DNA of 60,054 bases, filler included. It is 4 parts of 4 records of this genome, joined end to end, with 100 filler letters (N's around TTAATTAATTAA, not from the genome) between each part and the next. Parts side by side here need not be neighbours in the genome. Positions count along the whole stretch, not along the records: positions 18,234 to 35,118 come from SRR31156797_4605; 3 more parts are not named here. One strand, written 5' to 3'. Shown one piece after another: positions 18,080-58,664 of this stretch (its first letter is position 1; every line of letters starts with the position of its first letter). The notes under the pieces were generated by a model. The model worked only from the letters and a program-made list of their open reading frames with translations, made no database searches and was not told the DNA's origin. The position numbers and the translations under genes were made by a program.

Positions 18080-18094
18080 TGGACTTCAAAATTT

Positions 18095-18133
18095 CGGAAC
18101 GTAGCGCAGCCTGGTAGCGCACCTGAATGGGGT
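18095..18133 (+). tRNA. tRNA-Pro(GGG), 5' half truncated by contig end
   Basis: CGGAACG-TA-GCGCAGCCTGGTAGCGC-A-CCTGA-ATGGGGT: acceptor 5' strand, D-arm, and anticodon loop with GGG. Confidence 0.9.
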
Positions 18134-18233
18134 NNNNNNNNNNNNNNNNNNNNNNNNNNNNNNNNNNNNNNNNNNNNTTAATTAATTAANNNNNNNNNNN
18201 NNNNNNNNNNNNNNNNNNNNNNNNNNNNNNNNN
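18134..18233. other. Artificial contig linker
   Basis: N44-TTAATTAATTAA-N44, with stops in all six frames; identical to the other two linkers. Confidence 0.98.
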
Positions 18234-18260
18234 TCGCGGGTTCAAGTCCCGTCTTTCGCT
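18234..18260 (+). tRNA. 3' part of a tRNA, most likely tRNA-Gly, no encoded CCA; truncated by contig start
   Basis: TC-GCGGG-TTCAAGT-CCCGT-CTTTCGC-T: T-arm, acceptor 3' strand implying 5' GCGAAAG, and a U discriminator as in bacterial tRNA-Gly. Confidence 0.7.
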
Positions 18261-18270
18261 TAATTTTAGG

Positions 18271-18297
18271 CCGTATTCGAAAGAATGCGGTTTTTTT
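18271..18297 (+). terminator. Intrinsic terminator after the tRNA
   Basis: CCGTATTC-GAAA-GAATGCGG followed by T7. Confidence 0.8.
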
Positions 18298-18302
18298 ATG
18301 TC

Positions 18303-18802: not shown

Positions 18803-21139
18803 ATGAACAATACACTGATTTATGATATTTCCATACCAAAAGAGTACCATTCATTATTGGTCAGACTCAGATCAGTTTATGGACCCAATTTAACAATTAA
18901 TGATTTTCTTGCAAAAGGGATTGATGAGTTCTCTACTCACCCAGGCGTTGGTAAAACTTACATTACCCGGTTTGAGTTATTTAAAGAATATCTATGTGAA
19001 CAATTAGAAAACAACTGTGTCCAGCTGTCTCTATTGGATATGGAAGCCTCGAATAATTTCAGCATTGATCCAAGAAGATCAGCATTATTTCATAAAATCA
19101 CGCAATGCTATTCGCATGTACAAACAGTTGAAGAAATAGGAATGATATCTCCTTCCGACTTTGCTTCCTTTCCTGGTGTTGGCAAAAGAAAAGTAGAAGA
19201 GCTAATCAGCTGGCAGCAAGAATTACTTCCTAATGAACAAGACATTAAGACCGAACAGCTTTCAGAGCAATTGAAAAAATATAGGTTATCCTATTTCAAA
19301 ATCTCTCCACAAGAAGAGAAAATACTTAACAAAGTGCAAAATAGTTTGTTACAAGAAAGAGAAATCACCCCTTCAGAGACTATTCAATTAAAAACTACAG
19401 ATATAGAGGGTTGTCAAGGACTGGGTAGAAAGACTTGTGATGGATTCTATGCGATACAGCAACGAATTATAAACAGTCTGAATAATAAAGATAATATATT
19501 AGTTCCTACAGATTTTTGTTCATCAAATACCTTAAAGGAAATATGCCCAATTATCGAAGAGGATTTATTTAAATTCTCTGAAATGTTATCTGGAAATAAT
19601 TCCATAATATGGAAAGCTAGAACAGGGTATAAGACAGAGCATTTAACCTTGCAAGAAATTGGAGACTCATTAAACCTTACTAGAGAGAGGATAAGACAAG
19701 TTGCAGATAAGCTAACAAGAAGATTTTTATTAGGAGTAAGAATAAGCCCTAATGTATTGGGTTCTAAGATTGATAAGATCACTAGAGTCCAGTTATTTGA
19801 TAATATCAAATCACTAAGACCAATATTCAATACAGATAATGATCTTCTTAATATGCTTGCTCTAATATCAGACGAAGATCCCAAAGATGTAATTCTTAGA
19901 TTTAATCCTCAGATTAACCGGAGTATCCTTGATAATTTCTTCAAATGGAACTCATATCCTACTCAAAGACATGAAATACTATCTTTTCTCCATGACGAGA
20001 TTGGTGGAACAGATGAAGAAATAGATATCTATTTTACTACATTGCTAAATTCGGGGATTATTCGTTCTAATGATATCGGAGTCACACCTCTTAGTCTTGG
20101 GAAAGAAAATGCAATTTGTCATATCTTAGCCGGATATCCAAAAGGTCTGAAATGGAAAGAAGTTGCAATAAAGGTCAATAAATCAAATATATCGAAAGTT
20201 AAGCTTTCACAGGAACGCCCTGATGCGAATCTTAACTTTTCATCCTCAGTCTTTCAATCAGCACAACATACATATTCACATATCAAGTTTTTTCCAACAA
20301 ACAGAGATGGAATAAAACAAATTCTAAACAATGTAAAGTTAGCACTTCTTTCATCGAATCATGATTCTATACACCTTATGGCTGAGTATTATGCTAAATT
20401 GGATTCTCCACAATATGATTATTATACAATTCGACACGCTGTAAGAAACTATGGTGAATCCTTCAACTTATTTTTCAAAGGAAAATCCCAGTCTGACACT
20501 GTTAGTATTAATCCTGATTCAAAATCTGTATCTCAAAAAGAGGCATTGAAGAGATTATTTCTAGATACAGACTCTCCTCTTACAATCCAGGAAGTAATGA
20601 ACCATATAAAGAGTCATTCTGAAGGACATGCAAGGCTTTATATTGATGAGTTAATAACCAGTGGAGATATTGTGTCCGTGGAAGTTAATCAATATCAGAA
20701 TAGAGAAGTTGCTTTTAAGAATATAGAAATTGAGCAGGCTCAAGAAAAAATAAAGACGATGATAACAGATGATGATAGAATCCATCATATTTCTGTTATT
20801 ACTCATCATATAAACCGAATGTTTGGCTATGACTATTCAAATCGATTTTGGCGTTCTTTTTTATTATCATATGCACCGCAGATGAATTGGTATGTAAAAG
20901 GACTTTTAGTCTCAAATGAACAAATAGGGATTAGGGGCCTCACAGAGCTAGTTCATGAGGCAAATGGGATGGATCAGGAATCAATAATAGCAGCTGTTCA
21001 ACAAAGAGTATGTGTTTCACGTGAAGAAATAAAGAATGCTATTTCAAACTATAATATGAAATCTTTGAAACCAAGTTCGCCTAGGTTTGAAAATCAAGGC
21101 CTTGCTTCCGATATAATGGAGGAGCTATTTCTGCTGTGA
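18803..21139 (+). CDS. Protein with three RNAP alpha-CTD-like HhH repeats, a sigma70 region 4 HTH and winged-helix-like C-terminal domains
   Basis: FSTHPGVGKT, FASFPGVGKRKVEEL, IEGCQGLGRKT; LTLQEIGDSLNLTRERIRQV matches sigma70 region 4.2. The stop overlaps the next start (GTGA). Confidence 0.72.
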   Translation: MNNTLIYDISIPKEYHSLLVRLRSVYGPNLTINDFLAKGIDEFSTHPGVGKTYITRFELFKEYLCEQLENNCVQLSLLDMEASNNFSIDPRRSALFHKITQCYSHVQTVEEIGMISPSDFASFPGVGKRKVEELISWQQELLPNEQDIKTEQLSEQLKKYRLSYFKISPQEEKILNKVQNSLLQEREITPSETIQLKTTDIEGCQGLGRKTCDGFYAIQQRIINSLNNKDNILVPTDFCSSNTLKEICPIIEEDLFKFSEMLSGNNSIIWKARTGYKTEHLTLQEIGDSLNLTRERIRQVADKLTRRFLLGVRISPNVLGSKIDKITRVQLFDNIKSLRPIFNTDNDLLNMLALISDEDPKDVILRFNPQINRSILDNFFKWNSYPTQRHEILSFLHDEIGGTDEEIDIYFTTLLNSGIIRSNDIGVTPLSLGKENAICHILAGYPKGLKWKEVAIKVNKSNISKVKLSQERPDANLNFSSSVFQSAQHTYSHIKFFPTNRDGIKQILNNVKLALLSSNHDSIHLMAEYYAKLDSPQYDYYTIRHAVRNYGESFNLFFKGKSQSDTVSINPDSKSVSQKEALKRLFLDTDSPLTIQEVMNHIKSHSEGHARLYIDELITSGDIVSVEVNQYQNREVAFKNIEIEQAQEKIKTMITDDDRIHHISVITHHINRMFGYDYSNRFWRSFLLSYAPQMNWYVKGLLVSNEQIGIRGLTELVHEANGMDQESIIAAVQQRVCVSREEIKNAISNYNMKSLKPSSPRFENQGLASDIMEELFLL

Positions 21140-23244
21140 AATCCGATTTATCAGAGTTACAATTGCAAATCTCATACAGGACAGGCCGCGATGATCTAAT
21201 ATCGGATTTTTATGTACCTTGCTTAAATCGATCTATTTTATACCAGAGAGCAGTTGGGTACTTCACAAGTATGAGTCTAGCAATCGCAGCGTCTGGCATC
21301 GCTAACTTGATATATGCAGGAGGTAGGATTCAGCTGATAGCCTCTCCCAACTTAACTGATGAGGATATAGATGCAATAGAAAGAGGCATGTCTAATGACA
21401 CTGATATTATTCAAAAAGCTGCAATGCGAAGCTTCTCAGAAATTAAGGATACACTAATAAAAGAAAGGTTAGAAGCTCTAGCATGGATGGTCTCTACTGG
21501 TTCTTTAGAAATGAAACTTGCCCTTCGCGTATCGAAATCAGGTAAACTGAGCCGGGGAATATATCATGAAAAGATTGGAGTATTTACAGATGTGAATGGT
21601 AATAAAGTTACCTTCATCGGATCTGGGAATGAAACGGGATCAGCATTACTTGAAAACTTTGAATCACAAGAAGTGTCATGGTCTTGGGATGACCCACAAG
21701 GTAGAGCGTTAGAAAAGATAGAACTTTTTGATAACTTGTGGGAAAATTCAACTGAAGGTTTAAAGATTATAGAGTTCACAGATGCGACATCTGAAATATT
21801 AAGACCATATACACCGAACTTCCCTCCCGATCCAATCACTTCATCTTCAATATCTGAAAGCCCTAGATCTCATTATTCAATACAGAAGCCGGATTTCCCT
21901 GATTGGCTTGAATTGCGCGATTACCAAGAATTGGCTATAAGAAATTGGTTCAATAATGACGGTATGGGTTCTCTTAAAATGGCGACAGGCAGTGGTAAGA
22001 CCATTACAGCTCTTTCGACCCTAATATATCTTTATCAAAAGGCAGGATTAAAAGCTGCGATAGTACTATGTCCATATAAGCATTTAGTAGACCAATGGGC
22101 TAAAGAAGCAAAGAAGTTTAATTTCTCCCCATTGATTGTGCATACCTCTAGAAATATCTGGTCAGAGGATCTAAATCGGAATCTCATTACGATTAAAAAC
22201 TGTAATGATAAGATTTTACTTGTGATCACAACTAATAGATCTTTTTCTAACGATTTTTTTCAGAGTAAAATATCTCTGTTTCCCCTTAGTACTATTCTTA
22301 TAGCTGATGAAGCCCATAATCTGGGAGCTAAAGATCTTAGATCTAAACTACCAGAATCAATAAAATGGCGATTGGCTCTGTCCGCTACTCCGGAGCGCTG
22401 GTTTGATGATGAGGGCACAGATGCCTTATTTCGATATTTTGGAAAAGTCTTAGAGCCAGAATTCACATTAAAGGACGCACTTGATTCTGGTGCATTATCC
22501 CCATACCGCTATTATCCTATTCTAGTAGAGCTTACAGAAGATGAACAAGAAGAGTATCTTTCACTGAGTGAACAGATTGCAAAAATATTTTCCATTGAAG
22601 GATTCAATAAAGAAAACAAGAGACTATCGATATTACTGCTACAAAGAGCAAGACTAATGGCCAGCGCTGAAAACAAATTACTCCATTTAGAGAACTTGAT
22701 GAAAGATAAGACTTCTTCCAAACACTGGTTATTCTATTGTGGAGACGGTCGAGTTGATGATCCTTCTAGTGATGAGGAAATTAGACAGATTGAGTCTGTA
22801 TGCCGTATCCTTGGTCATAGGCTTCAAATGAAGATTGCTTCATTTACTGCTGAAACATCACGTGAAGATCGAAAAGTGATTTCAAAGAAGCTTGATGAAG
22901 GAGACCTACAGGGATTAGTTGCTATCCGCTGTCTTGATGAAGGGGTAGATATCCCATCAACAGAGAAAGCAGTAATCTTGGCCAGTAGCACGAACCCACG
23001 TCAGTTTATCCAACGGAGGGGCCGAGTTCTTCGTAAGCCATATAAGGATTCGAAGAAAGTAGCTGAGATATATGATATGATAACAGTTCCTCCTGTTGAC
23101 TCTGTTGTTACAGAGTCTGAAAGAGCAATGCTAAGAAAAGAATTTACTCGCTTTGCTGAATTTGCAAAGCTATCGTTAAATGCCGGTGAAGCTCGAATGG
23201 TAATATTTGAATTACAGAAGAAATATGATTTGACTGATATATAG
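21136..23244 (+). CDS. pbeA: PLD-nuclease/SF2 helicase, PbeA-like (Dnd-associated restriction enzyme family)
   Basis: HKD-type YHEKIG...IGSGNET; helicase motifs MATGSGKT, DEAH, SAT, CLDEGVDIP, QRRGRVLR; adjacent to the dnd genes. Confidence 0.82.
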   Translation: MKSDLSELQLQISYRTGRDDLISDFYVPCLNRSILYQRAVGYFTSMSLAIAASGIANLIYAGGRIQLIASPNLTDEDIDAIERGMSNDTDIIQKAAMRSFSEIKDTLIKERLEALAWMVSTGSLEMKLALRVSKSGKLSRGIYHEKIGVFTDVNGNKVTFIGSGNETGSALLENFESQEVSWSWDDPQGRALEKIELFDNLWENSTEGLKIIEFTDATSEILRPYTPNFPPDPITSSSISESPRSHYSIQKPDFPDWLELRDYQELAIRNWFNNDGMGSLKMATGSGKTITALSTLIYLYQKAGLKAAIVLCPYKHLVDQWAKEAKKFNFSPLIVHTSRNIWSEDLNRNLITIKNCNDKILLVITTNRSFSNDFFQSKISLFPLSTILIADEAHNLGAKDLRSKLPESIKWRLALSATPERWFDDEGTDALFRYFGKVLEPEFTLKDALDSGALSPYRYYPILVELTEDEQEEYLSLSEQIAKIFSIEGFNKENKRLSILLLQRARLMASAENKLLHLENLMKDKTSSKHWLFYCGDGRVDDPSSDEEIRQIESVCRILGHRLQMKIASFTAETSREDRKVISKKLDEGDLQGLVAIRCLDEGVDIPSTEKAVILASSTNPRQFIQRRGRVLRKPYKDSKKVAEIYDMITVPPVDSVVTESERAMLRKEFTRFAEFAKLSLNAGEARMVIFELQKKYDLTDI

Positions 23245-23252: not shown

Positions 23253-23402
23253 ATGGCTGATGAATTGAAACCTATTAAAGATGCTCCAGATAAAATACGA
23301 AATATTATTAGAAAAGTACTTGAGCATGAAAAAGGAAATATCAACAAGCAAAGAGGGATCAAAGATGACATTGTTGATATCATAAAAAAGGAGATCCAAT
23401 GA
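23253..23402 (+). CDS. 49-aa protein, PbeB-like (below the ORF-track cutoff)
   Basis: AGGAG RBS, then MADELKPIKDAPDKIRNIIRKVLEHEKGNINKQRGIKDDIVDIIKKEIQ. The TGA overlaps the next ATG (ATGA) and the ORF fills the intergenic gap. Confidence 0.82.
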   Translation: MADELKPIKDAPDKIRNIIRKVLEHEKGNINKQRGIKDDIVDIIKKEIQ

Positions 23403-25486
23403 AGCTTATCAGTCTCCAGATGCATAACTTTCGCCAATTCTATGGGACTACACCCATAATTAGATTTGCTTCAGGTAGATCCAATGTAACGATTTTTCAT
23501 GCTGAAAATGGAGCAGGAAAAACAGCCTTGTTAAACACCTTTACTTGGCTTCTATATGATTCATACACTAAAGGATTTGGATCTCCAGATGAAAAAGTGA
23601 ATAAAAGGGCTTTGGCTGAGGCTGAAATTGGTTCTACTGTTGAAACATGGGTCGAACTTTCTTTCGAACATAATAAAACTATCTATCAAATTCGTCGTCA
23701 AACAGCAGCTGTTAAAATTGATGAAGAGGAGTGGAGCTATAAACCAGAAAGAGCAGCTCAACTATCATATGCGAATGAAGATGGGCAATGGCACTCCGAA
23801 GATAAAGTCTCAGAAGTAATTGCACGAGTCCTACCCAAAGATCTTCATACATACTTCTTCTTTGATGGAGAACGAATTGAACGCATTGTGCAGCCAACTA
23901 AGAAAGAAAAAGATGAACTTGCAGCTGCGACAAAGAAACTATTAGGAGTGGAAGTATTAGATCGTGCGAGATCTCATTTAGACAATGCGCGCATTGTCTT
24001 AGAGAAGGAGCTTAAGCAGATTGGAGATCCTAAGACACAAAAGCTTCTTGAAGAAAAAGAAGAAAAGGAAAAAGAGTTACATAGCTATCAGGAAATCTTG
24101 GATCAAAATCAAACGAATTTAGATGCATTTAAAGAAAACAAAGTTGAAGTCGAAAGAAGATTAAGAGAGCTTGAAGGAGTTCAGGATTTACAAAGAAGAA
24201 GGGATCAATTAAACGAAGATCTTGATTCTCGTAAGGCATCATTAAATCAAACCCAAGAACGATTAAAACAGGCAATTGCTAAGAATGGATACTCTGTTTT
24301 TGTCGAAGATTCTGCCAATGAGTTCCGTGATTTGATTGAAGCGCTTCGACAGAAAGGAGAACTTCCGGTAGGAATTAAAAAACAGTTTGTTCAGGATATT
24401 CTTGATCAAGGGAAATGCATTTGTGGTCATAGTCTAAAGATTGAAGATGATCCTGAAGCCAGAGCGGCAGTTGAATCATGGATGCAGAAAGCAGGAAGTG
24501 ATGATGTAGAGAGAGCTGCAAATGAAATGGGTATATTAATAGAGAATATCCAAGAAAAAGTACCTTCGTTCTGGGAAACAGTTGAAAGCTGCCAGACTAA
24601 AGAAGAAGCTGATAGAATTGGAATCTCTGAGATCGAAAGTGAACTTGATGAAATAAAAAAGAAATTAGCTGATAGTCCGCGTGAAGAGGTGAGTTCTTTG
24701 CAAATTCGCTTAACTCAACTAGAAGAGGATATTGAAAAGTCCAATCGTAAAATAGGTGCTACCAACCAGGATATTAAAGATGCAATAGCTGTAATTGCAG
24801 ATCTTCAAAATCAGATTTCTGAACATAAAGGATTAGAAGAACAGCAAAATCTAGCAAGCCTTCGCGTTGATGCTGCTGTTGATGCAAGAGATCGTATTAG
24901 ACAAGTTTATGACAACATAAATGAAGAGTTAAGAAAGAAATTTGAAAAAAGTATTAATAAGTTTTTTAACCTAATTTCTGTCACGCCATACATCGCAAAA
25001 CTTGATTCCTCATATTCGTTAGAGCTATTTGACCAATCTACAAACATGTCAGTTCCTGTATCTCGTTCACAAGGAGAAAGCCAAGTCCTTAGCCTTTCAT
25101 TTATTGCTGGATTTGTTGATCTAACAAAAGCATGGAGTGCAAAAGGGCAAAGTAATATTGTAGGTCCAGAAAATGTTGAATATCCAATTGTTATGGATTC
25201 TCCGTTTGGAGCACTAGATACAACCAATCGTAGGCATGTTACAGAACATATTAATCGAGTAGCAGACCAGGTAGTAATGATGGTCTCTTCTACACAATGG
25301 AGAGGTGAAGTTAGTGCTGAATCTGTTGGAAAGGTCGGAAGATCCTATGTACTCACTTATCATACGCCAAAAGATGATCTAGAAGAAAATGTGACCTCAG
25401 AATTAAACGGACAAACATATGACTTAGTTCGAAAGAGTTCAAGTAAATTTGAATTTTCAGAAATAATCGAGGTAGAGAATGGCTGA
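23399..25486 (+). CDS. pbeC: Rad50/SMC-like ATPase, PbeC-like
   Basis: Walker A AENGAGKT, FFFDGE, long coiled coil with CICG zinc hook, signature RSQGE, Walker B/D-loop VMDSPFGALD. Confidence 0.8.
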   Translation: MKLISLQMHNFRQFYGTTPIIRFASGRSNVTIFHAENGAGKTALLNTFTWLLYDSYTKGFGSPDEKVNKRALAEAEIGSTVETWVELSFEHNKTIYQIRRQTAAVKIDEEEWSYKPERAAQLSYANEDGQWHSEDKVSEVIARVLPKDLHTYFFFDGERIERIVQPTKKEKDELAAATKKLLGVEVLDRARSHLDNARIVLEKELKQIGDPKTQKLLEEKEEKEKELHSYQEILDQNQTNLDAFKENKVEVERRLRELEGVQDLQRRRDQLNEDLDSRKASLNQTQERLKQAIAKNGYSVFVEDSANEFRDLIEALRQKGELPVGIKKQFVQDILDQGKCICGHSLKIEDDPEARAAVESWMQKAGSDDVERAANEMGILIENIQEKVPSFWETVESCQTKEEADRIGISEIESELDEIKKKLADSPREEVSSLQIRLTQLEEDIEKSNRKIGATNQDIKDAIAVIADLQNQISEHKGLEEQQNLASLRVDAAVDARDRIRQVYDNINEELRKKFEKSINKFFNLISVTPYIAKLDSSYSLELFDQSTNMSVPVSRSQGESQVLSLSFIAGFVDLTKAWSAKGQSNIVGPENVEYPIVMDSPFGALDTTNRRHVTEHINRVADQVVMMVSSTQWRGEVSAESVGKVGRSYVLTYHTPKDDLEENVTSELNGQTYDLVRKSSSKFEFSEIIEVENG

Positions 25487-25931
25487 ACGAAGAATTAGAG
25501 TACCAGCTGATAAAGTAGATTTTATTGAGTCAATGCTTAAATCAAATAAAGGACCATTTGAATTGAAAGCACAAGTCCTAGGTTATGCAGCGGCGTATGG
25601 TGCCAAGTATGGAGAACGCAGACCAATAACAAAAGCATCGAGCAGTGAGTCTATTCGCTATAGTGTCTTTATTGGAGAGAAGTTGGATACCTTAATAAAT
25701 CTTCTTGCTTTCACAAATACAAAAGATCCTAAAGTACTAGCACGCAGTGAGGAAATGGAGGATCTACGTGCAACGATTTTTGAAGAGTATGCTAATTGTG
25801 GATTGACAATGTTAGAGGAGAAGCTAATAGGAGAAGTAAAGTATTCTCAATCTCTATTATTGATTATGAAAGAAATCGGATCATCAGAAGATGAAGTTGA
25901 GAACTTAATTGGACTATTAGGAAATAGTTGA
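25479..25931 (+). CDS. Dnd-associated protein 4 / PbeD-like (DndE-like)
   Basis: RRIRVPADK, YAAAYG, IFEEYANCGL motifs; overlaps the ATPase stop. Confidence 0.75.
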   Translation: MAERRIRVPADKVDFIESMLKSNKGPFELKAQVLGYAAAYGAKYGERRPITKASSSESIRYSVFIGEKLDTLINLLAFTNTKDPKVLARSEEMEDLRATIFEEYANCGLTMLEEKLIGEVKYSQSLLLIMKEIGSSEDEVENLIGLLGNS

Positions 25932-25939: not shown

Positions 25940-26986
25940 ATGAGAGTTATTGATGTAATAAAGACACAGTATAAAATAAGTGATTTTGTGTCTTGGCAAA
26001 AACAAGGAACTTTAGATCTATCTCCCGATTTTCAGAGAAGACCTGTTTGGAAAAAAGGTGCAAAATCATATCTTATCGATACTATTCTAAGAGGATTCCC
26101 AGTTCCAATTATCTTCATAAGAGAAAAATTGGATCTAGGTAAGATGGAGCCTATTCGAGAAGTTGTTGATGGACAGCAACGCTTACGAACTTTGCTTGGA
26201 TACATTAAGTCAGAACTATTAGTTGATTTTAAACCTCAGACTGATCGATTTAATATACTGAAATCCCATAATGAGGAATTTGCAAATTGTTCGTTTGAAG
26301 ACTTGAGTGAAGAGGCTCGTCATCAAATCCTAAATTATCAATTCAGTGTACATATTTTACCATCTGACGTTTCAGATCGAGAAGTTCTTCAAGTTTTTAG
26401 TAGAATGAATGCAACTGGTGTAAAGCTAAAAGCGCAAGAATTGAGAAATGCTGAATACTATGGAGAGTTTAAGACCTCTGTATATGATATTGCATTAACT
26501 CAATTAGACCGATGGAAAGATTGGAAACTATTCTCAGAAGCTAAAATTGCCCGGATGGAAGAAGTCGAATTTGTTAGTGAAATTTATGGCTTAATTTTAA
26601 AGGGTATCAAAGGTAATAAACAAGATTTTATAAATAGTCTTTATGACGAGTATGATGATATATTCTTAGAACGTTTAGTTGTAGAAGCTAGATTTAATAA
26701 AGTACTGGATCTAATTGAAGATCATTTTTACAATACAATACTTAATTATAAATTTTACAGAAATAAAAATGTATTTTATATTTTATTTTCTGTAATATAT
26801 GACAAGTTGTATGGCATTGGCTCTTTATTAACTGATTCACTACCAAATAAAGTGAAACATCATGATATTTCAGATATAATAGATAAAATGAAAATTTTTG
26901 AAGAAGATAATTCACCTGATGAGTTTGACACTAGACGATTGGGCCAACAAGAAAACAGGATTAAGGTGATAAAGTACTTTGCCTAG
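25940..26986 (+). CDS. DUF262 (ParB/Srx-fold, GmrS-like) protein
   Basis: PDFQRRPVW, LIDTILRGFPVP, VVDGQQRL, FSRMNATG..L..QELRNA. RBS GAGG. Confidence 0.9.
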   Translation: MRVIDVIKTQYKISDFVSWQKQGTLDLSPDFQRRPVWKKGAKSYLIDTILRGFPVPIIFIREKLDLGKMEPIREVVDGQQRLRTLLGYIKSELLVDFKPQTDRFNILKSHNEEFANCSFEDLSEEARHQILNYQFSVHILPSDVSDREVLQVFSRMNATGVKLKAQELRNAEYYGEFKTSVYDIALTQLDRWKDWKLFSEAKIARMEEVEFVSEIYGLILKGIKGNKQDFINSLYDEYDDIFLERLVVEARFNKVLDLIEDHFYNTILNYKFYRNKNVFYILFSVIYDKLYGIGSLLTDSLPNKVKHHDISDIIDKMKIFEEDNSPDEFDTRRLGQQENRIKVIKYFA

Positions 26987-27584
26987 AATAAATTCAAATT
27001 ATTATACCAAACTAGTCTCTCAATACAACCAGATTCTTATAACTCGAGGGAAAATAGAAAAATTATGTAAATCTGGAGATTTATCAAACAGAGATGTTAA
27101 AAAATTATACTCTGGTCTATTCATAAACTCTGTAACAAGTTTTGAAGGATACTTAGAACAGATTTTCATAGCACATTTGATTCATCCAAATAGAAATATA
27201 ATTCCCCGTTTTACTGTCAAATCACATAAGATTGCTTATGAAATTTTATCTGGTGATCGTTCATATATAGATTGGCTACCATATAGAAATACAAAAGATA
27301 GAGCATTAAGATGTTTTCGATCAGGATTTCCATATAGTAATATTACAACCTCAGAAGAATCTAGATTAGATATTGTGTGTATTATTAGGAATGCATTAGC
27401 TCATAATAGCAAACATGCCGATATTAAGTTTGAAAAAAAAGTTACTTCTCAAATACCTTTAAGAAAAAGAGAGAGTACTCCAACTGGATATTTAAGAGCT
27501 ACTTTCAGAAGTTCACCTCGCATGACTTATTTTGAGCTACATTTAAATGAACTATTACATATTGCTTACAAGATAGATTTATAG
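26979..27584 (+). CDS. HEPN-domain protein (putative RNase)
   Basis: RxxxxH motif RNALAH plus the N-terminal HEPN helix SFEGYLE. TTG start overlaps the DUF262 stop. Confidence 0.72.
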   Translation: MPRINSNYYTKLVSQYNQILITRGKIEKLCKSGDLSNRDVKKLYSGLFINSVTSFEGYLEQIFIAHLIHPNRNIIPRFTVKSHKIAYEILSGDRSYIDWLPYRNTKDRALRCFRSGFPYSNITTSEESRLDIVCIIRNALAHNSKHADIKFEKKVTSQIPLRKRESTPTGYLRATFRSSPRMTYFELHLNELLHIAYKIDL

Positions 27585-27585
27585 G

Positions 27586-27936
27586 TCAACTATATTGAGA
27601 GAATTCGTTTGAATTGAGAATTCCAATACCCCGGTGTAAATGAAGTTTAAATTGATGAGATAAGTCTCCATTATCAAGTTTTCCAAAATCCTTATAATAT
27701 CGCTGCTTTAACAAAGCAAGGTAAATATCATGATGTTCTCCTCCAAAAGTCCTCCATGTCATTTCAACATTACTATCTAGAGGTATTTGTGCTGGTGAAG
27801 GGGGAGTTTCATCTGCTAATGATAAACATAATGCCCAACGACATAATACATTCCAGTGCTCTATTCCTGTTTTTTGTTTTACAGTTATCAACTGGCGTTT
27901 GGCCTTCTCAGATATGCGGACCGTATCAATACTCAT
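27586..27936 (-). CDS. dndE: DNA sulfur modification protein DndE
   Basis: KTGIEHWNVLCRWALCLSL, VEMTWRTFGG, HLHRGI. Confidence 0.92.
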   Translation of the reverse strand: MSIDTVRISEKAKRQLITVKQKTGIEHWNVLCRWALCLSLADETPPSPAQIPLDSNVEMTWRTFGGEHHDIYLALLKQRYYKDFGKLDNGDLSHQFKLHLHRGIGILNSNEFSQYS

Positions 27937-29906
27937 ATTAAATATCCTTCAGTAATCTTAGTAGTTTGCTTTTCTTCATCATATTTAATAGTCCATTCAT
28001 TACTTATATGACTGCTTATTCTTTCATAGTAGTCGCCATATATCTCTTCATCAGTTGACAGTAATATCACTTGATGAGCTGCATTAGGAAAATAGCGATT
28101 TATTAAATGTTCTCTGTGAACTGAATCAAGCCTGCCCATTGGTGTATCAACGATTACAGGGATAGTTCTATTCGATGCCTTTTGCAATCCCCAAAAAATG
28201 GCAACGGCTAAGAGCTGTCTTTCCCCTGCTGATAATTTATCAGCCGATATTTTCTTTCCATCCGAGTTTGTAAGAGTTATTAAGAAAGACGCAGTATCAA
28301 TTCTTAGATTGTTGACGAGCGATTTTTTATTCACTAGATTGTTAAAACTTTCTAGTATTTGAAGTTCCAATGTTTCTAAGTGCTTCTTCACCAACTCATC
28401 TTTATATAAATCAAGATACTGCTGAGCCTTCAAACTATATGATATTATTCTATTATTATCATCTTCTGAAGAAGTCACTCTAGCATTCTCGCCAATCAGT
28501 TTTACAACCCTTTCCTTCAACAGGGCTAATTCTGATTGAAGATTCTGCAACTTATCTTCTTTAAATTGAATATCTGACTCAATACTCAACAATAATTTAG
28601 TACTATTTACACGTTCATTGTATAAAGATTCTAATTCTCCCTCTTCTGGAGTTGAATCGAGAATTATGTTTATCTTTCTTATTCTTTTATCTAAAGCAGT
28701 ATGATCCTTAAGTAATTGATTGTATTCTTTCTCTCGCTCAGGAATGTTATGAAGAATTGCTTCTAATAAGGGTATACTATCAGTGGGGAAACCTAGATAG
28801 AGATCAGCATCCTCAATCTTTTGATTTAAAGTTTGCTTTTCTGTAGTTGCCAAATTAGTTAATGCATTTATTACTTTTCTTGATGCCCCGTTTTCTTCAG
28901 CAACTATTAGATGTTTTTCATGGATTTGATCATATTGGGATAATTGTTGAATACAATTAGCAACATCCACTTCTACTTTCACTTGTTCTTTAATTTGAGA
29001 GAGCTGATCTTTGACTATAAACAAAGGAAGAACGCCAGATCTTTCCTTAATAATCTGTTTTGATAATAACTCTGATTGTTTTTCTAGTTCTTTTTTAAGA
29101 GTTTCATTTTTACTTCTTTCATCTAGTAAAGTACCACCCTTGTATTCATATTCAGAATCAAGAATTGCTATTTTTTTCTTAATATCACTTCTCTGGTTTT
29201 TTAAACTAACTATTGCGTCTTCTAAGCTTTGAATCTCATTATCAACAGTTTCATATTGATTTTCAGCTACCTTTAATTTATGAACCTCACTTTCTGACTT
29301 ATTATTAATAGATTTATTACGATTCAAAATAGATAGATCTTGTTGTAGTTGTTCAATCGTTCCAATTCCAAGAAGCTCAACAATAGCAGATTCTAGAAAC
29401 TCTTGGGCTGTCTCTGGTCGAACTAAGTTTTCAATCTGTTCACCATCAAAAAAAAACAAAGTAGAGAGCTTTGCAGGTAATATTGAATCGATATACTGAT
29501 CCCAAATTGTAGAGATAGCCTGATCAAGTATATTATTGATAAATACATCTTTACGCTCTTTAATACCTTTTCCTGTAGAAATCCATGAAAACTCAACTTT
29601 AAAATCTGTTTCTCTTCCTCTATATGGATGTTTAAAGCTAAGTTTTATTCTTGTTTCAATCGTTGGCTCCGCATCACGATTTATCCAAGATCTGAGATAA
29701 TCGGCCCACCTTTGGTCAGATCTTTTAAATGCATTAGATCTCTTCCCATAAAGACACAATTGCATCGCATCCAGTATAGTGGTCTTTCCTCCGCCATTAT
29801 GACCACCAATTAATAAAATAGGTTCAGTTTTTGTAGTTACTAAAGATATTTTATGCTTGCCTTTATACTGACCAAAATTCTGTAAAGTTAAATCTTGAAA
29901 TATCAT
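27933..29906 (-). CDS. dndD: DNA sulfur modification ATPase DndD
   Basis: GGHNGGGKTT, LFFFDGEQI, LSAGERQL, IVDTPMGRLDS.HR, QVILLSTDEE. Confidence 0.93.
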   Translation of the reverse strand: MIFQDLTLQNFGQYKGKHKISLVTTKTEPILLIGGHNGGGKTTILDAMQLCLYGKRSNAFKRSDQRWADYLRSWINRDAEPTIETRIKLSFKHPYRGRETDFKVEFSWISTGKGIKERKDVFINNILDQAISTIWDQYIDSILPAKLSTLFFFDGEQIENLVRPETAQEFLESAIVELLGIGTIEQLQQDLSILNRNKSINNKSESEVHKLKVAENQYETVDNEIQSLEDAIVSLKNQRSDIKKKIAILDSEYEYKGGTLLDERSKNETLKKELEKQSELLSKQIIKERSGVLPLFIVKDQLSQIKEQVKVEVDVANCIQQLSQYDQIHEKHLIVAEENGASRKVINALTNLATTEKQTLNQKIEDADLYLGFPTDSIPLLEAILHNIPEREKEYNQLLKDHTALDKRIRKINIILDSTPEEGELESLYNERVNSTKLLLSIESDIQFKEDKLQNLQSELALLKERVVKLIGENARVTSSEDDNNRIISYSLKAQQYLDLYKDELVKKHLETLELQILESFNNLVNKKSLVNNLRIDTASFLITLTNSDGKKISADKLSAGERQLLAVAIFWGLQKASNRTIPVIVDTPMGRLDSVHREHLINRYFPNAAHQVILLSTDEEIYGDYYERISSHISNEWTIKYDEEKQTTKITEGYLI

Positions 29907-31462
29907 ATTACTTTATCTTCTTCATTCTTTAATTGAATATATTCATCTGTATCACGTTCCCATTCATCAACTTGCTTATCTATATAATGTTGTTTTGACT
30001 GGGCATAATTGATAGCATCGTCTTCATTTTTATAAAAATTTCTTTTTATTGAACTCTCTAAGTTCTTTAACAGGTTAGTTCTCCGGATTTGAGATGACTC
30101 TTTCAGTTCAACGCTCAGTAAATCTCTAACAAGATTATAATCGTTTCCACAAATCTCTTTGAGAATATTTAAGTCACCTCTATCAAATGGTTGATTTCCT
30201 TGTAATTCCTTTCCAGAAAATGGTTCACCAATTTCTTCTTCATAGACAGTGGGTAGAATATCTTCAATTTCGTTCTTTTCGAAAACCCATATCCGCCTGA
30301 TCTCATCAAGTTCATCTTCTGTTATTAGCTTAATATCCTTTACTTGCTCAGGCCCCTCATCACGGATGAATCGTTGAGCACTAAGAAGCATTCTTAGAAA
30401 ACGTTCCCTAACTTCTGGTTTATATGGACCTGGGATATATTTCATTTTGTCTCCGAATAGTTGAACTCGACCATTCATCCTTCGGAAATCTCGTAAACTT
30501 CTGTCGCTATCATCCATACTGAATTGTCGAAAATCAATCGCATTTCTTATCTCCAACATTGGGAGCATCCATTCTTTATCCGCATCATTTTGAATCATAG
30601 CAGCCATTGATTTATCCTGATCGACCAAGGTACAAGTCCAGCACCCAAATCTACTATCTCCACAGCTCGGTGTACTTGCATCAACAACCAATGGGCATTC
30701 ACCACCTTCTGTTGCTCCTGAGTAGAGTCCTAATAGCTCTGCATTACTATAACCCCATGGATTACTGTATTGATTTAAGAAAAGCCACACATCATCATTA
30801 GTCCACTCTTGAATTGGAGAATATATCCAAGTGTTGGGTAATTGACTATTCGGACTAACCTTAGATCCGACTTCAAGATCCCCATATCTATGCTCTTTTG
30901 ATCGTTCTCCTTCATAATGTTTCATTGAAGATGCTCTTTTAGAACTTTCTTTCTTTCTTGTTCCAAGACATAGAAGAACATCACCATGCTGCTTGGTTGT
31001 TTCAAGAATAAACTCATTTGAAGGCCATATCTTCAATCGCTCCGTACACCATCTAAATTTAGGACGTGGTGCTGGATATCCCTTCCCAATGAGATTTGTC
31101 CAGAAGCTATTTTCGGGTTTTGGTCTCAATTGATGAGGATAGAATGGAAGATTATTCTCTAATGCACTATCTTCCATATGTTGTAGAGACCCAAACACCC
31201 ATTGAGCAACAATCGGATTCTCTACTAAAGTATCAGTAGTAATGATATGGACTGCTTTCTTTCGTTCAGATTCCCTTAGTGATGAAATTGCCATCCATAC
31301 AAGCTGGAGTACTGCTGTTGAGTCTTTGCCACCACTATAGCCAATTACCCAAGGTACTTCATCAACCAGATATAGAGTAGTTATCTCATTAAGCAGCTCA
31401 TTGATAGATGTCTTTATACCTGATTTACTAAATGCTGAATCTGAATTATTGTCCTTTCCCAT
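29903..31462 (-). CDS. dndC: DNA phosphorothioation sulfurtransferase DndC
   Basis: PP-loop YSGGKDS, GKGYPAP..FRWCT, ECPLV...SCGDSRFGCWTCT. ATG 31462 follows GAGG (the ORF track starts at 31483). Confidence 0.95.
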   Translation of the reverse strand: MGKDNNSDSAFSKSGIKTSINELLNEITTLYLVDEVPWVIGYSGGKDSTAVLQLVWMAISSLRESERKKAVHIITTDTLVENPIVAQWVFGSLQHMEDSALENNLPFYPHQLRPKPENSFWTNLIGKGYPAPRPKFRWCTERLKIWPSNEFILETTKQHGDVLLCLGTRKKESSKRASSMKHYEGERSKEHRYGDLEVGSKVSPNSQLPNTWIYSPIQEWTNDDVWLFLNQYSNPWGYSNAELLGLYSGATEGGECPLVVDASTPSCGDSRFGCWTCTLVDQDKSMAAMIQNDADKEWMLPMLEIRNAIDFRQFSMDDSDRSLRDFRRMNGRVQLFGDKMKYIPGPYKPEVRERFLRMLLSAQRFIRDEGPEQVKDIKLITEDELDEIRRIWVFEKNEIEDILPTVYEEEIGEPFSGKELQGNQPFDRGDLNILKEICGNDYNLVRDLLSVELKESSQIRRTNLLKNLESSIKRNFYKNEDDAINYAQSKQHYIDKQVDEWERDTDEYIQLKNEEDKVI

Positions 31463-32561
31463 TATGTCCCTCAATAAATGCATTCTCTTTTTTTAGCTCT
31501 TCAGAAGAAAGTTCTAAACCAAGAATAGTTTTAATGTAATTAGAAGTCAGTACGACATTATTGGAAGACTTTTGAATATTGCCACCTATCAAAACTCTCC
31601 CTTCCCAACATGTCGTATTAGTCCGTGACCAGTTTATTTTTTTTATATTTGTTAAACGATCCTTCCAATCGTCGGGAAATTCTTTAATTAATGAGTTCCC
31701 AACAATGCCAAGTGCATGTAGTGCTGTGCTATGAGAATGAACATAGTCACTTCGTGATTCACCTGCACTTAACTTATGCTCATAAACAAGTATCCACTCT
31801 TGAATATGACTAGCTACAGCATCCCAATAATCGACTATAAGTTCAATTAGCTCATCATTCTGATACATAAGATCTTTTACTAAAGCTTTGATTGCAGAAT
31901 AGACCGCACTCAAAGTGAACAGTTTTCTTGAGCGTTGTGACAACGAACTTTTCTCCATTGCAACGACACTACTAAAAAGCTCTGACCGTGATACGACTTC
32001 TTTCGTCAATAATGAGTATTCATCCCTATAATCATATAGAATATTGAGAGATTTTGACGGTCTGATAGAATAGCGGTTTAAATCAGCAAACATTTGCTGA
32101 CATCTCTTAAGTCCCTGATCAACAAAAAACACAACTGAAATAGTTTCATTTGCAATATCTGGATTCTCTTTAATAGCTTCTTCAATCGCAGCCCTACGGT
32201 GTTGACCATCGTTGATAATCAGCTTCGCATCCATATCAATATGAAGTGTTCCCATCTTACTATGATGCTTATCATCTTTTACATGAGGTATGAAGTTTGA
32301 TTTGCCATCAATAGATGCTGTAATTGCAGAGAATACATAGCTATCTAAATTATCTAGAATGTATCGCTTTATCTCTGGAATCCTAGCTTTATTTAATTCT
32401 CTCTGGGCGCGTAATATTGCAGGAATACCGGGTTCATCAAATAAAAACATCTTAGGTAGTAACCTAATAGGGCACATTGATATATAATATTCTTGCTGTG
32501 CTTGGATACCTCTTATTGCTGGAAAAACGTACTCATACTCATACAAATGATTTTCAGCCAT
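31446..32561 (-). CDS. dndB: DndB (DGQHR) regulator
   Basis: FPAIRGIQA, RAQRELNKARIP, INDGQHRRAAI, QQMFADLN. Confidence 0.94.
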   Translation of the reverse strand: MAENHLYEYEYVFPAIRGIQAQQEYYISMCPIRLLPKMFLFDEPGIPAILRAQRELNKARIPEIKRYILDNLDSYVFSAITASIDGKSNFIPHVKDDKHHSKMGTLHIDMDAKLIINDGQHRRAAIEEAIKENPDIANETISVVFFVDQGLKRCQQMFADLNRYSIRPSKSLNILYDYRDEYSLLTKEVVSRSELFSSVVAMEKSSLSQRSRKLFTLSAVYSAIKALVKDLMYQNDELIELIVDYWDAVASHIQEWILVYEHKLSAGESRSDYVHSHSTALHALGIVGNSLIKEFPDDWKDRLTNIKKINWSRTNTTCWEGRVLIGGNIQKSSNNVVLTSNYIKTILGLELSSEELKKENAFIEGHNGKGQ

Positions 32562-32672: not shown

Positions 32673-33806
32673 ATGAGCATTTATCTTGATTGCAACGCAA
32701 CAACACCTATCGAACCAGAGGTATCTGAAGCAGTTAGATATTATACAGAAGAAGAGTTTGGAAATGCTGGAAGCCGTACACATGATTATGGGACTATTGC
32801 CAAAAAGGCTGTTCAAAAAGCTAGAAAGCAAGTAACTGATCTTTTACCAGCGTTAGATTCTTCAGATGTAATTTTTACTTCTGGAGCAACAGAATCAAAT
32901 AATATAGCACTTCTAGGTCTTTTGACTTGGGCGAGGGAGAACGGAAAAAATCATATCTTAACTACATCAATAGAGCATAAAGCCATACTAGAACCCCTCG
33001 CTTATGCAGAATCCATTGGATTTGACGTTGAAAGGATTTCCCCAAATGACTCTGGTGCTATCAATGCTACGGATTTATTAAATAGGGTTCGTAAAGATAC
33101 TTTTTTAGTTTCAGTGATGCATGTAAACAATGAAACAGGTATTATCCAACCAATCGATCAGATAGCAAATGGACTTCCTGAACGAGAGTGCTATTTACAT
33201 GTTGATGCAGCTCAGGGATATGGAAAAGAGTTTGATGAACTATCAAATAACAGAATCGATCTCATAAGCATAAGCGGACATAAAATCTATGGGCCAAAAG
33301 GTGTCGGTGCATTAATCATGAGAAGAAGGAAGTTCAAAAGAGCACCAATAGTACCTATCATGTATGGTGGAGGTCAAGAAAGAGGGCTTCGCCCAGGAAC
33401 CTTACCTGTACCATTGATAGCAGGTCTTGGAATTGCGGCTGAACTTTGCCAAAAAAACTACAAACAACGAAACCTTGCGAACAAAGCACTCCGTGAAGAA
33501 CTACTTAAATCCTTGGAAAATATCAATTATGAAATAAATGGAGATGGATTACTCTCTCTTCCTCATACCATTAATCTTTCATTTCCTAATATAAACTCTG
33601 AAGCGCTAATGTTAGCACTAAAAGGATATATATCAGTTTCTAATGGTTCGGCCTGTACTTCGCAAAGCTATGAGCCAAGTCATGTTTTAACTCAAATGGG
33701 TTTCTCTAAAGATCGGATTAATTCATCGATTAGACTTTCATGGTGCCATATGACAAAAAATCCTAATTGGGAGTATTTCATAAAGATATTAAAATCATTC
33801 GACTAG
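32673..33806 (+). CDS. dndA: Cysteine desulfurase DndA
   Basis: YLDCNATTP, FGNAGSRTH, SGHKIYGPKG (PLP Lys), SNGSACTSQSYEPSHVL; divergent from dndB. Confidence 0.93.
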   Translation: MSIYLDCNATTPIEPEVSEAVRYYTEEEFGNAGSRTHDYGTIAKKAVQKARKQVTDLLPALDSSDVIFTSGATESNNIALLGLLTWARENGKNHILTTSIEHKAILEPLAYAESIGFDVERISPNDSGAINATDLLNRVRKDTFLVSVMHVNNETGIIQPIDQIANGLPERECYLHVDAAQGYGKEFDELSNNRIDLISISGHKIYGPKGVGALIMRRRKFKRAPIVPIMYGGGQERGLRPGTLPVPLIAGLGIAAELCQKNYKQRNLANKALREELLKSLENINYEINGDGLLSLPHTINLSFPNINSEALMLALKGYISVSNGSACTSQSYEPSHVLTQMGFSKDRINSSIRLSWCHMTKNPNWEYFIKILKSFD

Positions 33807-33982: not shown

Positions 33983-34585
33983 ATGACCGATGAAACCAGA
34001 AAGCGGATTATACAAGTCTTTACGGAACATTCCGGTTATGCAAGAACCCGGGACATTCGCTTCAATGGAATTCACAACAAATACCTCCAGCAGCTGATGA
34101 ACGAAGGCAGTATCATCAAGCTCAAACACGGCCTTTATAGCCTGGCGGAAATAGATAATTATGCAGTTCTTCAGGAAGCGCTCCTTACAGTTCCCGATGG
34201 AATCGTCTGCATGGGGACTGCCCTTTCCTTCTACGAGCTGACAACCTGGAATCCTCCAGAAACACATATTGCCATCCGGCGGGGAAGGAAGATCGTCCTT
34301 CCGGAGTACCCTCCTATCAAGCTTTATTATATATCGGAAAGCATGCTGGTACTCGGGCGTACTGAGATCAGAGCAGAATCCGGACAGATGATCGCCATAT
34401 ACGACAGAGAGAGAGTCGTCTGTGATGCCGTACGATTCAGGAACAAGATTGGCATGGATATTATGAAGGAAGTTCTTAAGGAATATATGGCAAGTAAGCA
34501 AAAGGATCTCAACACCCTGTACGGCTATGCACGGAAGCTGCGTATCGAGACCGTACTCAACCAATACCTGGATGTGCTCATATGA
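33983..34585 (+). CDS. abiEi: Type IV TA antitoxin, AbiEi family
   Basis: N-terminal wHTH (KLKHGLY), TALSFYELT, YDRERVVCD.VRFRNKIG; ATGA overlap with the toxin. Confidence 0.88.
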   Translation: MTDETRKRIIQVFTEHSGYARTRDIRFNGIHNKYLQQLMNEGSIIKLKHGLYSLAEIDNYAVLQEALLTVPDGIVCMGTALSFYELTTWNPPETHIAIRRGRKIVLPEYPPIKLYYISESMLVLGRTEIRAESGQMIAIYDRERVVCDAVRFRNKIGMDIMKEVLKEYMASKQKDLNTLYGYARKLRIETVLNQYLDVLI

Positions 34586-35118
34586 AGAATAAAGCAGCAT
34601 CTATTCGGACCCGGTTGCTTAATCTCTCCCGTGAGGAGAAGAAAGACTTTGTACTGATATCCCGTCTGTATATGCAGGAAGGGATACTCAGAAGAATAGG
34701 CCAATCCAAGTACAGTGAGTCATTCTATCTGAAAGGAGGTCTTCTCCTCTACTCGATCTCCGGCTTTACAAGCCGTCCCACAATGGACATCGATTTACTG
34801 GGTTTGAGTATTCCAAACGATTCTGATCGGCTGCAGGGCATACTATCCGAGATCCTCTCCATCCAGATTGAGGACGGTTTATCTTTTGAGACAGAGTCGA
34901 TGAGCCTTCAGGAGATCACGGAAGGTGCGGACTATCATGGACAGAGACTCAAGGTTCTCTGCCGACTCGGTTCTGTCCGAACGAACCTGAAGCTTGATAT
35001 CGGATTCGGCGATATCATCTTCCCCGAGCCGGTGAAGATAGACTACCCCCTGCTACTTGATTCAGAGAAATTCAGTATCTCGGCATATTCGCTGGAGTCG
35101 GTCATAGCTGAGAAGTTT
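34582..35118 (+). CDS. abiEii: Type IV TA toxin, AbiEii nucleotidyltransferase (truncated by contig end)
   Basis: LKGGLLL, RPTMDIDL, LDIGFGD, ESVIAEKF. Confidence 0.9.
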
Positions 35119-35218
35119 NNNNNNNNNNNNNNNNNNNNNNNNNNNNNNNNNNNNNNNNNNNNTTAATTAATTAANNNNNNNNNNNNNNNNNNNNNNNNNN
35201 NNNNNNNNNNNNNNNNNN
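35119..35218. other. Artificial contig linker
   Basis: N44-TTAATTAATTAA-N44. Confidence 0.98.
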
Positions 35219-51928: not shown

Positions 51929-52192
51929 GGTAAAATTGCAAAATGGCCGATTATGAGTGTATTTGGTATCTATTATTATCCTCAGAAAAATGCTTTTGTT
52001 AAACCAACAACAGCTAAAAATATCTTAAAATATTTCGAAATACTTGATTTTGCATATAAGCCACGACCATCATATGAGTTTTATGTTAAATATCGAGAGT
52101 TGGTTAATGAGATGAAATCAAATGTAAGTGATAATCTTTATCCTGATAATGCCGCTTTTACCGGTTTCTTAATGCTTACTATGCCCAAATAA
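51929..52192 (+). CDS. Hypothetical protein, C-terminal fragment
   Basis: Open from the contig start (GKIAKWPIMS...FVKPTTAK...YKPRPSYEFY...NAAFTGFLM); followed by a terminator. Confidence 0.65.
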   Translation, partial: GKIAKWPIMSVFGIYYYPQKNAFVKPTTAKNILKYFEILDFAYKPRPSYEFYVKYRELVNEMKSNVSDNLYPDNAAFTGFLMLTMPK

Positions 52193-52202
52193 TTATATAT
52201 AA

Positions 52203-52235
52203 AAATAAAGCTACTCAAACGAGCAGCTTTATTTT
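52203..52235. terminator. Bidirectional terminator
   Basis: AAATAAAGCTACTC-AAAC-GAGCAGCTTTATTTT between convergent genes. Confidence 0.7.
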
Positions 52236-54837: not shown

Positions 54838-54857
54838 TTGTCCTCCTAGTTTGAGTT

Positions 54858-56099: not shown

Positions 56100-56132
56100 T
56101 ATAAGTCCTTTCACTATTTGTTTTGAGTAAAT

Positions 56133-56909: not shown

Positions 56910-57064
56910 TGTCCCCTCCAAATTTTTTTATTGAATTATTCATATAAAACTGATAGAATTGCATGTTCTTTATTTTATACAATACTTTAATATACTAAAG
57001 AATAGTACAATAAAAGTCAAGAAATATATAATTAATTATGACACAGAAAATTAAATAGTGTTGT

Positions 57065-57123
57065 ATAACATTTTCATCACATCTATAGTTTATTATATAA
57101 TAGAGATGTGATAAAAATGTTAT
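57065..57123. promoter_or_regulatory. 20-bp inverted repeat flanking a TATAAT box
   Basis: ATAACATTTTCATCACATCT-N19-AGATGTGATAAAAATGTTAT (19/20); the spacer contains TATAAT. Confidence 0.65.
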
Positions 57124-57162
57124 GAGTTACATAAAATAGATTTATTTAAATTGGGAGGCGGG

Positions 57163-58650: not shown

Positions 58651-58664
58651 TTTTATGAAAACAG

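Follow-up and report, generated by a model that had tools for sequence, protein, structure and literature searches.

A sigma-region-4 protein at the head of a Pbe operon belongs to a family that accompanies nuclease-motor restriction enzymes

The PbeABCD defence system was described in H. jeotgali with four genes (Xiong et al., 2019, PMC6459918), since re-annotated as encoding an HKD-SF2 enzyme, a small protein, a CxC ABC ATPase and a DndE cognate (PMC10853773). Xiong et al. saw no DNA cleavage by PbeABCD (PMC6459918), and the Aravind group has argued that PbeA must cut (PMC10853773). Among DndH proteins, the larger gammaproteobacterial forms carry a sigma-factor-related helix-turn-helix (HTH) between the restriction endonuclease and HerA/FtsK parts, to which PMC10853773 gives one sentence; the word 'sigma' appears once in its main text, and this sentence is the only printed mention of the module that we found. 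Here we describe a locus in a 60,054-nt stretch of DNA (the window; four parts from one genome joined end to end, with filler between them) in which a PbeABCD cassette is headed by a gene for a protein, P0001, that contains a sigma-70 region 4. The gene is an uninterrupted open reading frame (ORF) of 778 amino acids (aa) on the plus strand (18803–21139), beginning with ATG. Its TGA stop (21137–21139) and the GTG start of pbeA have three bases in common in a 4-nt GTGA overlap (...CTGCTGTGAAATCC, 21131–21144), which bears out the translational coupling to the PLD-helicase proposed in the initial annotation. It is the first gene of a complete Pbe–Dnd island, an extra fifth gene on the PbeABCD cassette, and the locus is a variant of the known Pbe system that carries one representative of an accessory family, widespread and all but uncharacterised. 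With moderate confidence we read P0001 as a non-catalytic, multi-domain DNA-reading subunit that would act as a landing or recognition part for the nuclease-helicase PbeA.

The centre of this reading is the sigma-70 region 4 domain (residues 244–316; 19532..19750, + strand), which comprises regions 4.1 and 4.2 and carries the recognition helix TRERIRQ at residues 293–299, within the region-4.2 string LTLQEIGDSLNLTRERIRQV (residues 281–300). It scores 25.9 bits against Pfam Sigma70_r4 (cut-off 24.1), and in a PDB sequence search only a sigma domain was matched, the best hit being RpoD region 4 (1tty_A, E 1.4e-3). In an AlphaFold2 model of residues 1–320 (pLDDT 91.6), residues 246–316 superpose on sigmaE region 4 with Z 9.6 and a root-mean-square deviation (rmsd) of 1.7 Å over 68 residues; sigma region 4 accounts for every one of the 16 chains at Z≥8, and Taq sigmaA region 4 on DNA (1rio_H) is a fold match at rmsd 2.3 Å with 37% identity. 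The recognition helix is well kept across 143 family segments (T 77%, R 90%, E 90%, R 89%, I 57%, R 92%, Q 91%) and TRERIRQ is identical in RpoD of five genomes (RpoA and RpoD for comparison were drawn from genomes of relatives). TLxExG, the region-4.1 RxG and the hydrophobic positions of region 4.1 are also kept in the family. In primary sigma factors the Arg, Glu, Arg and Gln of this helix make the −35 contacts, and isolated region 4 binds −35 DNA. The stretch that follows the helix, AKALRKLRHPSRS in RpoD, is unconserved in the family, most positions falling below 40% over the same segments.

P0001 thus shares with the sigma-70 family (RpoD/SigA) the region 4 fold, 30–37% identity to Taq sigmaA region 4, and identical TRERIRQ and TLxExG motifs. 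Unlike those proteins it has no regions 1–3, its sigma-4 domain is internal, what follows its recognition helix does not resemble RpoD, and it is identical to RpoD of the five genomes at only 16–21 of 73 positions. As initially annotated, it contains no sigma region 2 and no catalytic motif that could be found: Pfam at E≤10, NCBIfam and PADLOC returned neither Sigma70_r2 or Sigma70_r3 nor any enzyme family, and NCBIfam sigma models matched by their C-terminal region-4 positions only, at 13–26 bits against cut-offs of 323–779. Region 2 is the main core-binding surface of sigma factors, and P0001, which lacks it, is on sequence grounds not a sigma factor. A degraded sigma factor gene was also considered and rejected, since the family has 228 representatives (E≤1e-30) that conserve 500 residues outside the sigma part. 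Like P0001, MzaA, the sigma-70-like protein of the Mza anti-phage system (NF041931, PDLC02203), is defence-associated and has a sigma region 4 near a terminus; its local matches on P0001 are weak and confined to region 4 (E 1.3e-5 and 1.4e-4), P0001 scoring 24.2 bits against a cut-off of 800 (NF041931), with no similarity beyond that region. Foldseek comparisons of the whole and N-terminal models with the PDB gave no match at E≤1e-3, and the long alignments to entire sigma factors have rmsd of about 20 Å and are meaningless outside region 4.

Downstream of the sigma-4 domain, residues 317–757 (19751..21073, + strand) comprise a helical linker, an array of some five winged-helix domains and, at its end, a unit of three helices; no other part of the family is as large or as well conserved. 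Repeated helix-helix-helix-hairpin units are seen here in the full-length model (pLDDT 79.8, pTM 0.43), and their best local Foldseek matches are tandem winged-helix arrays, namely the C-terminal WH1–4 of SelB, UFL1/DDRGK1 and TFIIIC tauB (prob up to 1.00). Residues 577–639 are a canonical winged HTH (wHTH), matching MarR, IclR, Zalpha and SelB at Z ~9 with rmsd of 1.3–2.6 Å. What had been annotated as 'further helical domains' is indeed helical, and on the model resolves into about five winged-helix domains. Sigma-4 apart, the motif that the family keeps best is FFKGKSQSDTVS, which falls within the wing of the third of these domains. Taken in pairs, the winged-helix units have no sequence relation detectable by hhalign. 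Winged-helix arrays also serve Dnd-type systems: the triple wHTH of DndG, SspB and FokI, and the wHTH called SBD, are readers of DNA or of phosphorothioate (PT) that work for restriction enzymes (PMC10853773). The array of P0001 resembles these in kind, whereas it has about five domains rather than three, is preceded by sigma-4 and helix-hairpin-helix (HhH) domains, and shows no sequence link to DndG (hhalign probability 0.2% against 21 DndG sequences). Two of the domains are basic, sigma-4 with a net charge of +2 (isoelectric point, pI, 9.0) and WH2 (residues 433–498) with +6 (pI 9.8). The protein ends (21074..21136, + strand) in a low-confidence, disordered linker and an acidic-hydrophobic tail, GLASDIMEELFLL (the last 20 residues), which belongs to the Pbe-linked clade only: the pattern GLASD(I/V/L)M(E/Q)ELFxL is kept in P0002–P0007, P0010–13, P0016, P0018 and P0111. 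This tail looks like a docking peptide.

Upstream of sigma-4 the initial annotation had placed three HhH repeats, and all three hairpins are found in the translation. Repeat 1 (residues 5–72; 18815..19018, + strand) has the hairpin HPGVGK at 47–52 and a SAM-like/(HhH)2 fold; repeat 2 (residues 89–144; 19067..19234, + strand) has FPGVGK at 123–128 and matches Pfam HHH_5 below the cut-off (E 1.2e-3); repeat 3 (residues 163–229; 19289..19489, + strand) has CQGLGR at 204–209. Blocks cut from a 51-sequence family alignment match one another in hhalign at probabilities of 99.3% (E 2e-20), 97.8% and 98.4%, so that these are true internal repeats rather than chance resemblances. The further claim that they are like the C-terminal domain of the RNA polymerase alpha subunit (alpha-CTD) goes at most as far as a common SAM-like/(HhH)2 fold and fails for the Pfam family. 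The helix and helix-hairpin-helix topology is common to both, and repeat 1 in the AlphaFold2 model matches alpha-CTD chains at Z 6.1 (8w9z_A, rmsd 2.0 Å over 59 residues) and Z 5.6 (1z3e_B, 2.5 Å over 61); it matches SAM domains (Z 6.3) and the N-terminal domains of RAD51/RAD51C (Z 5.6–5.7) equally well. Against five RpoA alpha-CTDs, hhalign gave 72.6% for repeat 2, 52% for repeat 3 and 12.6% for repeat 1, the alignments spanning 29–32 columns of the HhH core in register (32 for repeat 2). RNA_pol_A_CTD (PF03118) has no match on P0001 at E≤10 and matches two of 51 relatives (best E 2e-3), HHH_5 matching eight of 51; in the five genomes with relatives, RpoA alone matched PF03118 at E≤1e-3. The DNA-contact residues of alpha-CTD are the hairpin Gly-Lys-Ser. 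P0001 reads GVGK, GVGK and GLGR, whereas the family repeats keep only the hairpin Gly (consensus GVG..Y / GFG), the Lys being lost from most relatives' repeats and the Ser likewise not conserved. ESM-Atlas neighbour clusters carry Pfam RNA_pol_A_CTD on 81–100% and Sigma70_r4 on 90–95% of their members, a lead that comes without an alignment.

The distribution of the family ties it to enzymes that combine a nuclease with a motor. A profile search of 1.84 billion representatives returned 228 at E≤1e-30, rising to 341 at E≤1e-10, and 67 related loci (37 from genomes and 30 from metagenomes) were classified by phmmer, Pfam and PADLOC. In 50 of the 67 (50 of 55 when loci cut on the upstream side are set aside), the module adjoins or sits inside a nuclease-motor. 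Two loci (L001 and L038) have the sigma-like gene directly before PbeA-B-C-D in the same order as in the window; in 23 the module lies within a DndH-matching ORF (two of these ORFs being split), and in two it is a separate gene directly after DndH; in 20 it directly follows a gene of about 740 aa for an Mrr_cat plus SF2 helicase protein (17 clear, three partial); and three are GmrSD fusions. One further locus, beside dndBCD, has an N-terminal extension of no known type, 12 are truncated by the start of the contig (two of them beside dndBCD), and four show no partner gene. Genes of the dnd set adjoin 28 of the 67 loci. Fusions to an MmeI/Eco57I-type methylase, HerA/FtsK, AAA+, HEPN or DUF6339 occur among other representatives. 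The number of HhH repeats varies with the clade, from about none to three. A word-index search with residues 1–245 alone returned nothing, missing even relatives of 54% identity, and is therefore uninformative.

Within DndH the module can be compared directly with the insert mentioned in print. The 23 DndH-type ORFs match P0001 in phmmer at E ~1e-51 to 1e-66, DndH ORFs of 2413–2456 aa doing so over query residues ~160/270–765, with the inserts beginning at query residues 161–269; in L004, Sigma70_r4 falls at 1501–1540, between the DndH body (to ~1290) and HerA/FtsK (2050–2340). The sigma-HTH insert of the large DndH variant (NAR 2024, PMC10853773) is thus homologous to the sigma-4 and downstream module of P0001, which unlike the insert is free-standing, is 778 aa long, has three HhH repeats and stands first in a Pbe operon. 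The main text of PMC10853773 describes neither the winged-helix array nor the free-standing family with its links to Pbe, Mrr-helicase and GmrSD, and in literature searches we found no published account of free-standing members or of their association with these three enzyme types.

Phylogeny groups the family by enzyme partner. In a maximum-likelihood tree of the region from sigma-4 to the end (62 rows), the Pbe clade has SH-aLRT support of 100 and pairs with the Mrr-helicase clade as its sister (91); the DndH clade (95) places its fused form (100) beside the adjacent form, and the GmrSD clade is separate; partner labels change 13 times on the tree against a mean of 33.6 after shuffling, and none of 200 shuffles was as low. 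The Pbe-linked form is rare. PbeA itself has at least 3635 relatives at E≤1e-50, about 20 of them at 67–79% identity to that of the window before a drop to 61%, and four further close homologues of the sigma-like protein lie on contigs of the same lengths as those of the closest PbeA homologues, which is indirect evidence of a link between the two. One PbeA relative (P0168, 72% identical to the window's) occurs on 70 contigs from many sources, one of which labels it a Poseidoniales archaeon; this points either to broad occurrence in the sea or to an artefact of binning.

The Mrr-helicase/sigma-like pair is independent of Dnd: DndC was not found in three of five searched genomes with the pair, one of them a complete chromosome, and in a fourth it lies 3.4 Mb away. 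A relative of P0001 in E. coli NCTC9699 is 25% identical over ~750 aa (E 6e-62) and is named by PGAP a 'sigma factor-like helix-turn-helix DNA-binding protein', P0001 being similar over its full length to members so named; it lies with an Mrr-type SF2 helicase in a two-gene cassette (L087, 4771–9451; 742 aa and 816 aa). This helicase plus sigma-like cassette is found in 83 of 5426 complete E. coli genomes, flanked by insertion sequence (IS) and integrase remnants, and PADLOC v2 has no model for the pair. Three IncHI1A plasmid copies matched in tblastn at E 1e-53, and in one such plasmid locus (L086) IS1 occupies the expected place of the helicase gene. Other pairs lie within defence islands (L021, 12202–15582; L016, 12373–13818); IetA-IetS stands directly 3' of the pair in L021 (and L018), and an AAA_15/AAA_23 ATPase directly 3' in L016.

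Since the recognition helix is kept, sigma-4 and WH2 are basic, and the module is recurrently fused, a DNA-reading subunit for nuclease-motor enzymes is the simplest reading. The sigma-4 domain would retain the residues with which a primary sigma factor reads the −35 hexamer; with the help of the basic winged helices it may bind double-stranded DNA, probably at sites that resemble −35 elements or are otherwise preferred, and P0001 may thereby give the translocating nuclease a loading place or license it there. PbeC and PbeD, with Dnd modification, would set self from non-self, the HhH repeats may add weak backbone or protein contacts, and the C-terminal tail peculiar to the clade may be a docking site for a Pbe partner. 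P0001 may play a part like that of the winged-helix readers and the recognition modules of Dnd-type systems (PMC10853773). The suggestion in the initial annotation that the protein recognises promoter DNA and recruits the helicase-nuclease is compatible with this reading and close to it, with DNA binding, sequence preference, PbeA contact and a recruiting or licensing role being what we infer from the features above. A more specific form, which we regard as unlikely, is promoter-guided restriction, whereby a working −35 reader, perhaps with UP-like contacts, would load nuclease-motors at an invader's sigma-70-type promoters in at least four defence types (Pbe, Mrr-SF2, DndFGH and GmrSD), or alternatively would compete there with the host RNA polymerase.

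Several points weigh against a DNA-reading subunit. TRERIRQ might be kept for a reason other than the reading of −35 DNA, and both DNA binding by P0001 and its complex with PbeA are predictions. P0001 as a whole is acidic (pI 6.1), and its HhH repeats are not basic (net −2, −1 and +1) and do not conserve the hairpin Lys. The fold of the C-terminal array is drawn from the pTM 0.43 model and from Foldseek matches at E >1e-3, and the tree comes from a quick search only. The canonical four-gene PbeABCD works without a sigma-like gene (PMC6459918), and none of the three PbeA loci in 400 sampled genomes has one within 1.5 kb upstream. The role of the gene in Pbe is therefore accessory. Co-folding of PbeA (702 aa) with residues 570–778 of P0001 gave a score of 0.00 (mark 0.34), the alignments being unused by the tool, and this speaks neither for binding nor against it.

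Other functions can be drawn from the same domains. The initial annotation had called P0001 an RNA polymerase mimic and raised the idea of a decoy, whose sigma-4 and alpha-CTD-like domains would imitate the surfaces attacked by phage takeover proteins, so that binding or modification by a phage factor releases the nuclease-helicase. A real sigma region 4 is indeed combined with alpha-CTD-type folds in one non-sigma protein, the ESM-Atlas clusters offer a lead (albeit one without an alignment) in the same direction, and the gene sits in defence operons. Yet what the family conserves is the DNA-recognition helix and not the stretch after it; the internal position of the sigma-like domain leaves no free sigma C-terminus; and the HhH repeats vary in number between clades, fall below the Pfam alpha-CTD cut-off in the subfamily of P0001 and do not conserve the alpha-CTD-type hairpin Lys. 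Moreover, homologues are found as inserts in DndH and as fusions with GmrSD, with MmeI-type methylases, with HEPN and with ATPases of the HerA/FtsK kind, and such insertion and fusion in restriction enzymes fits a DNA-handling part better than bait. The computed evidence thus gives the mimic label and the decoy idea no support and mildly disfavours them; we regard a decoy as decidedly unlikely, and less likely than a DNA-reading subunit. The sigma-4 domain could instead dock on the beta-flap of core RNA polymerase, like that of a genuine sigma factor, and bring the nuclease-helicase to transcription complexes, for example on invading DNA. The complete region 4.1 plus 4.2 fold, the conserved region-4.1 RxG and hydrophobic positions, and the standing of SF2 helicases as the commonest stand-alone partners are in keeping with such a tether, but P0001 has no detected region 2 and the positions that are conserved are ones one would expect of a fold core and of DNA reading; we regard a tether as a slim prospect.

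There are two further alternatives. P0001 might be a plain transcription regulator whose HTH domains serve only to control the expression of the operon to which it belongs. The gene stands first in that operon, preceded by 500 bp of AT-rich intergenic DNA, regulators typically have HTH domains, and PGAP attaches transcription Gene Ontology terms to relatives by electronic inference. At 778 aa and about nine domains, however, it is far larger than known defence regulators, the module is found downstream of the enzyme gene (Mrr-helicase), inside the enzyme (DndH) or fused to it (GmrSD, methylase), and the tree tracks the enzyme partner; we think a regulator very unlikely. The winged-helix array might instead sense phosphorothioate or other DNA modifications and tell the nuclease what to spare or attack. 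The SBD wHTH reads PT in Dnd-linked nucleases (PMC10853773), winged-helix domains read N6-methyladenine (PMC11037411), and more than a third of the related loci lie beside dnd genes, whereas Mrr-helicase pairs occur in genomes in which no DndC was found (three of the five searched) and the array has no sequence link to DndG. We hold modification reading to be quite unlikely; it overlaps the DNA-reading subunit that we favour rather than excluding it.

The remaining genes of the island conform to a Pbe system with additions. Directly after P0001 comes pbeA (21136..23244, + strand), for a PLD/HKD nuclease and SF2 helicase (PADLOC PbeA E 1.7e-235; TIGR04095, named 'DNA phosphorothioation system restriction enzyme'). 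A small ORF of 49 aa in the gap between pbeA and pbeC (23253..23402, + strand) is assigned as pbeB-like by position and size, a homologous ORF standing at the same position in L001 and L038; pbeC (23399..25486, + strand) encodes a DndD-like (CxC) ABC ATPase (PADLOC PbeC E 5.4e-220), and pbeD (25479..25931, + strand) matches dnd_assoc_4 (TIGR04062) at 124.5 bits against a cut-off of 74.25. PbeA, the PbeB-like ORF, PbeC and PbeD thus stand in the order of PbeABCD beside dndBCDE, and the window differs from the described system in the fifth, upstream, coupled gene and in two extra genes 3' of pbeD (25940..27584, + strand). The latter encode an NsnA-like DUF262/GmrSD_N protein (25940–26986, + strand; PADLOC NsnA 1.1e-40) and a weakly matched RiboL-PSP HEPN protein (26979–27584, + strand); both lie between pbeD and dndE, L001 has no equivalent of either, and some relatives of the sigma-like protein are themselves fusions to GmrSD. 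P0001 matches no PbeA–D model, its sole PADLOC match being MzaA (E 1.4e-4, region 4 only), and its identity as a PbeB or PbeD variant was rejected, both being present as separate genes. The phosphorothioate modification genes dndE, dndD, dndC and dndB (27586..32561, − strand) run convergent to the pbe genes, and a divergent class-V aminotransferase gene of cysteine desulfurase type (32673..33806, + strand) is taken as dndA by position.

The block from ~18.3 to 35 kb has a G+C content of 31–38%, compared with 40–50% in its surroundings. Near its left edge a tRNA-like sequence (about 18080–18300) is split by two N-runs around the TTAATTAATTAA linker (18115–18234), ARAGORN called no tRNA in the window, and the low-G+C island begins directly after a terminator-like hairpin (18268–18293); this edge looks like either a tRNA-side insertion site or a scaffold joint. 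At the right edge (33983–35166) an AbiEii toxin-domain gene (34582–35166; Pfam 4e-28) overlaps an upstream ORF of 200 aa, the two being probably an AbiE pair. A second stretch of low G+C (28–29%; 52000–60054 of the window) carries MMPL/RND-like, DUF1302, LolA-like and aminotransferase genes.

The question on which this family bears is how Pbe, and nuclease-motor restriction systems generally, choose their targets. If our reading is true, an exchangeable DNA-reading subunit common to Pbe, DndFGH, Mrr-helicase and GmrSD systems would offer a handle on that choice, for which the sigma-type recognition helix yields a precise and mutable prediction. Should the promoter-guided form hold, phage early promoters would become an address label for defence. 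The presence of a two-gene relative in 83 of 5426 complete E. coli genomes makes the idea testable with ordinary phage assays.

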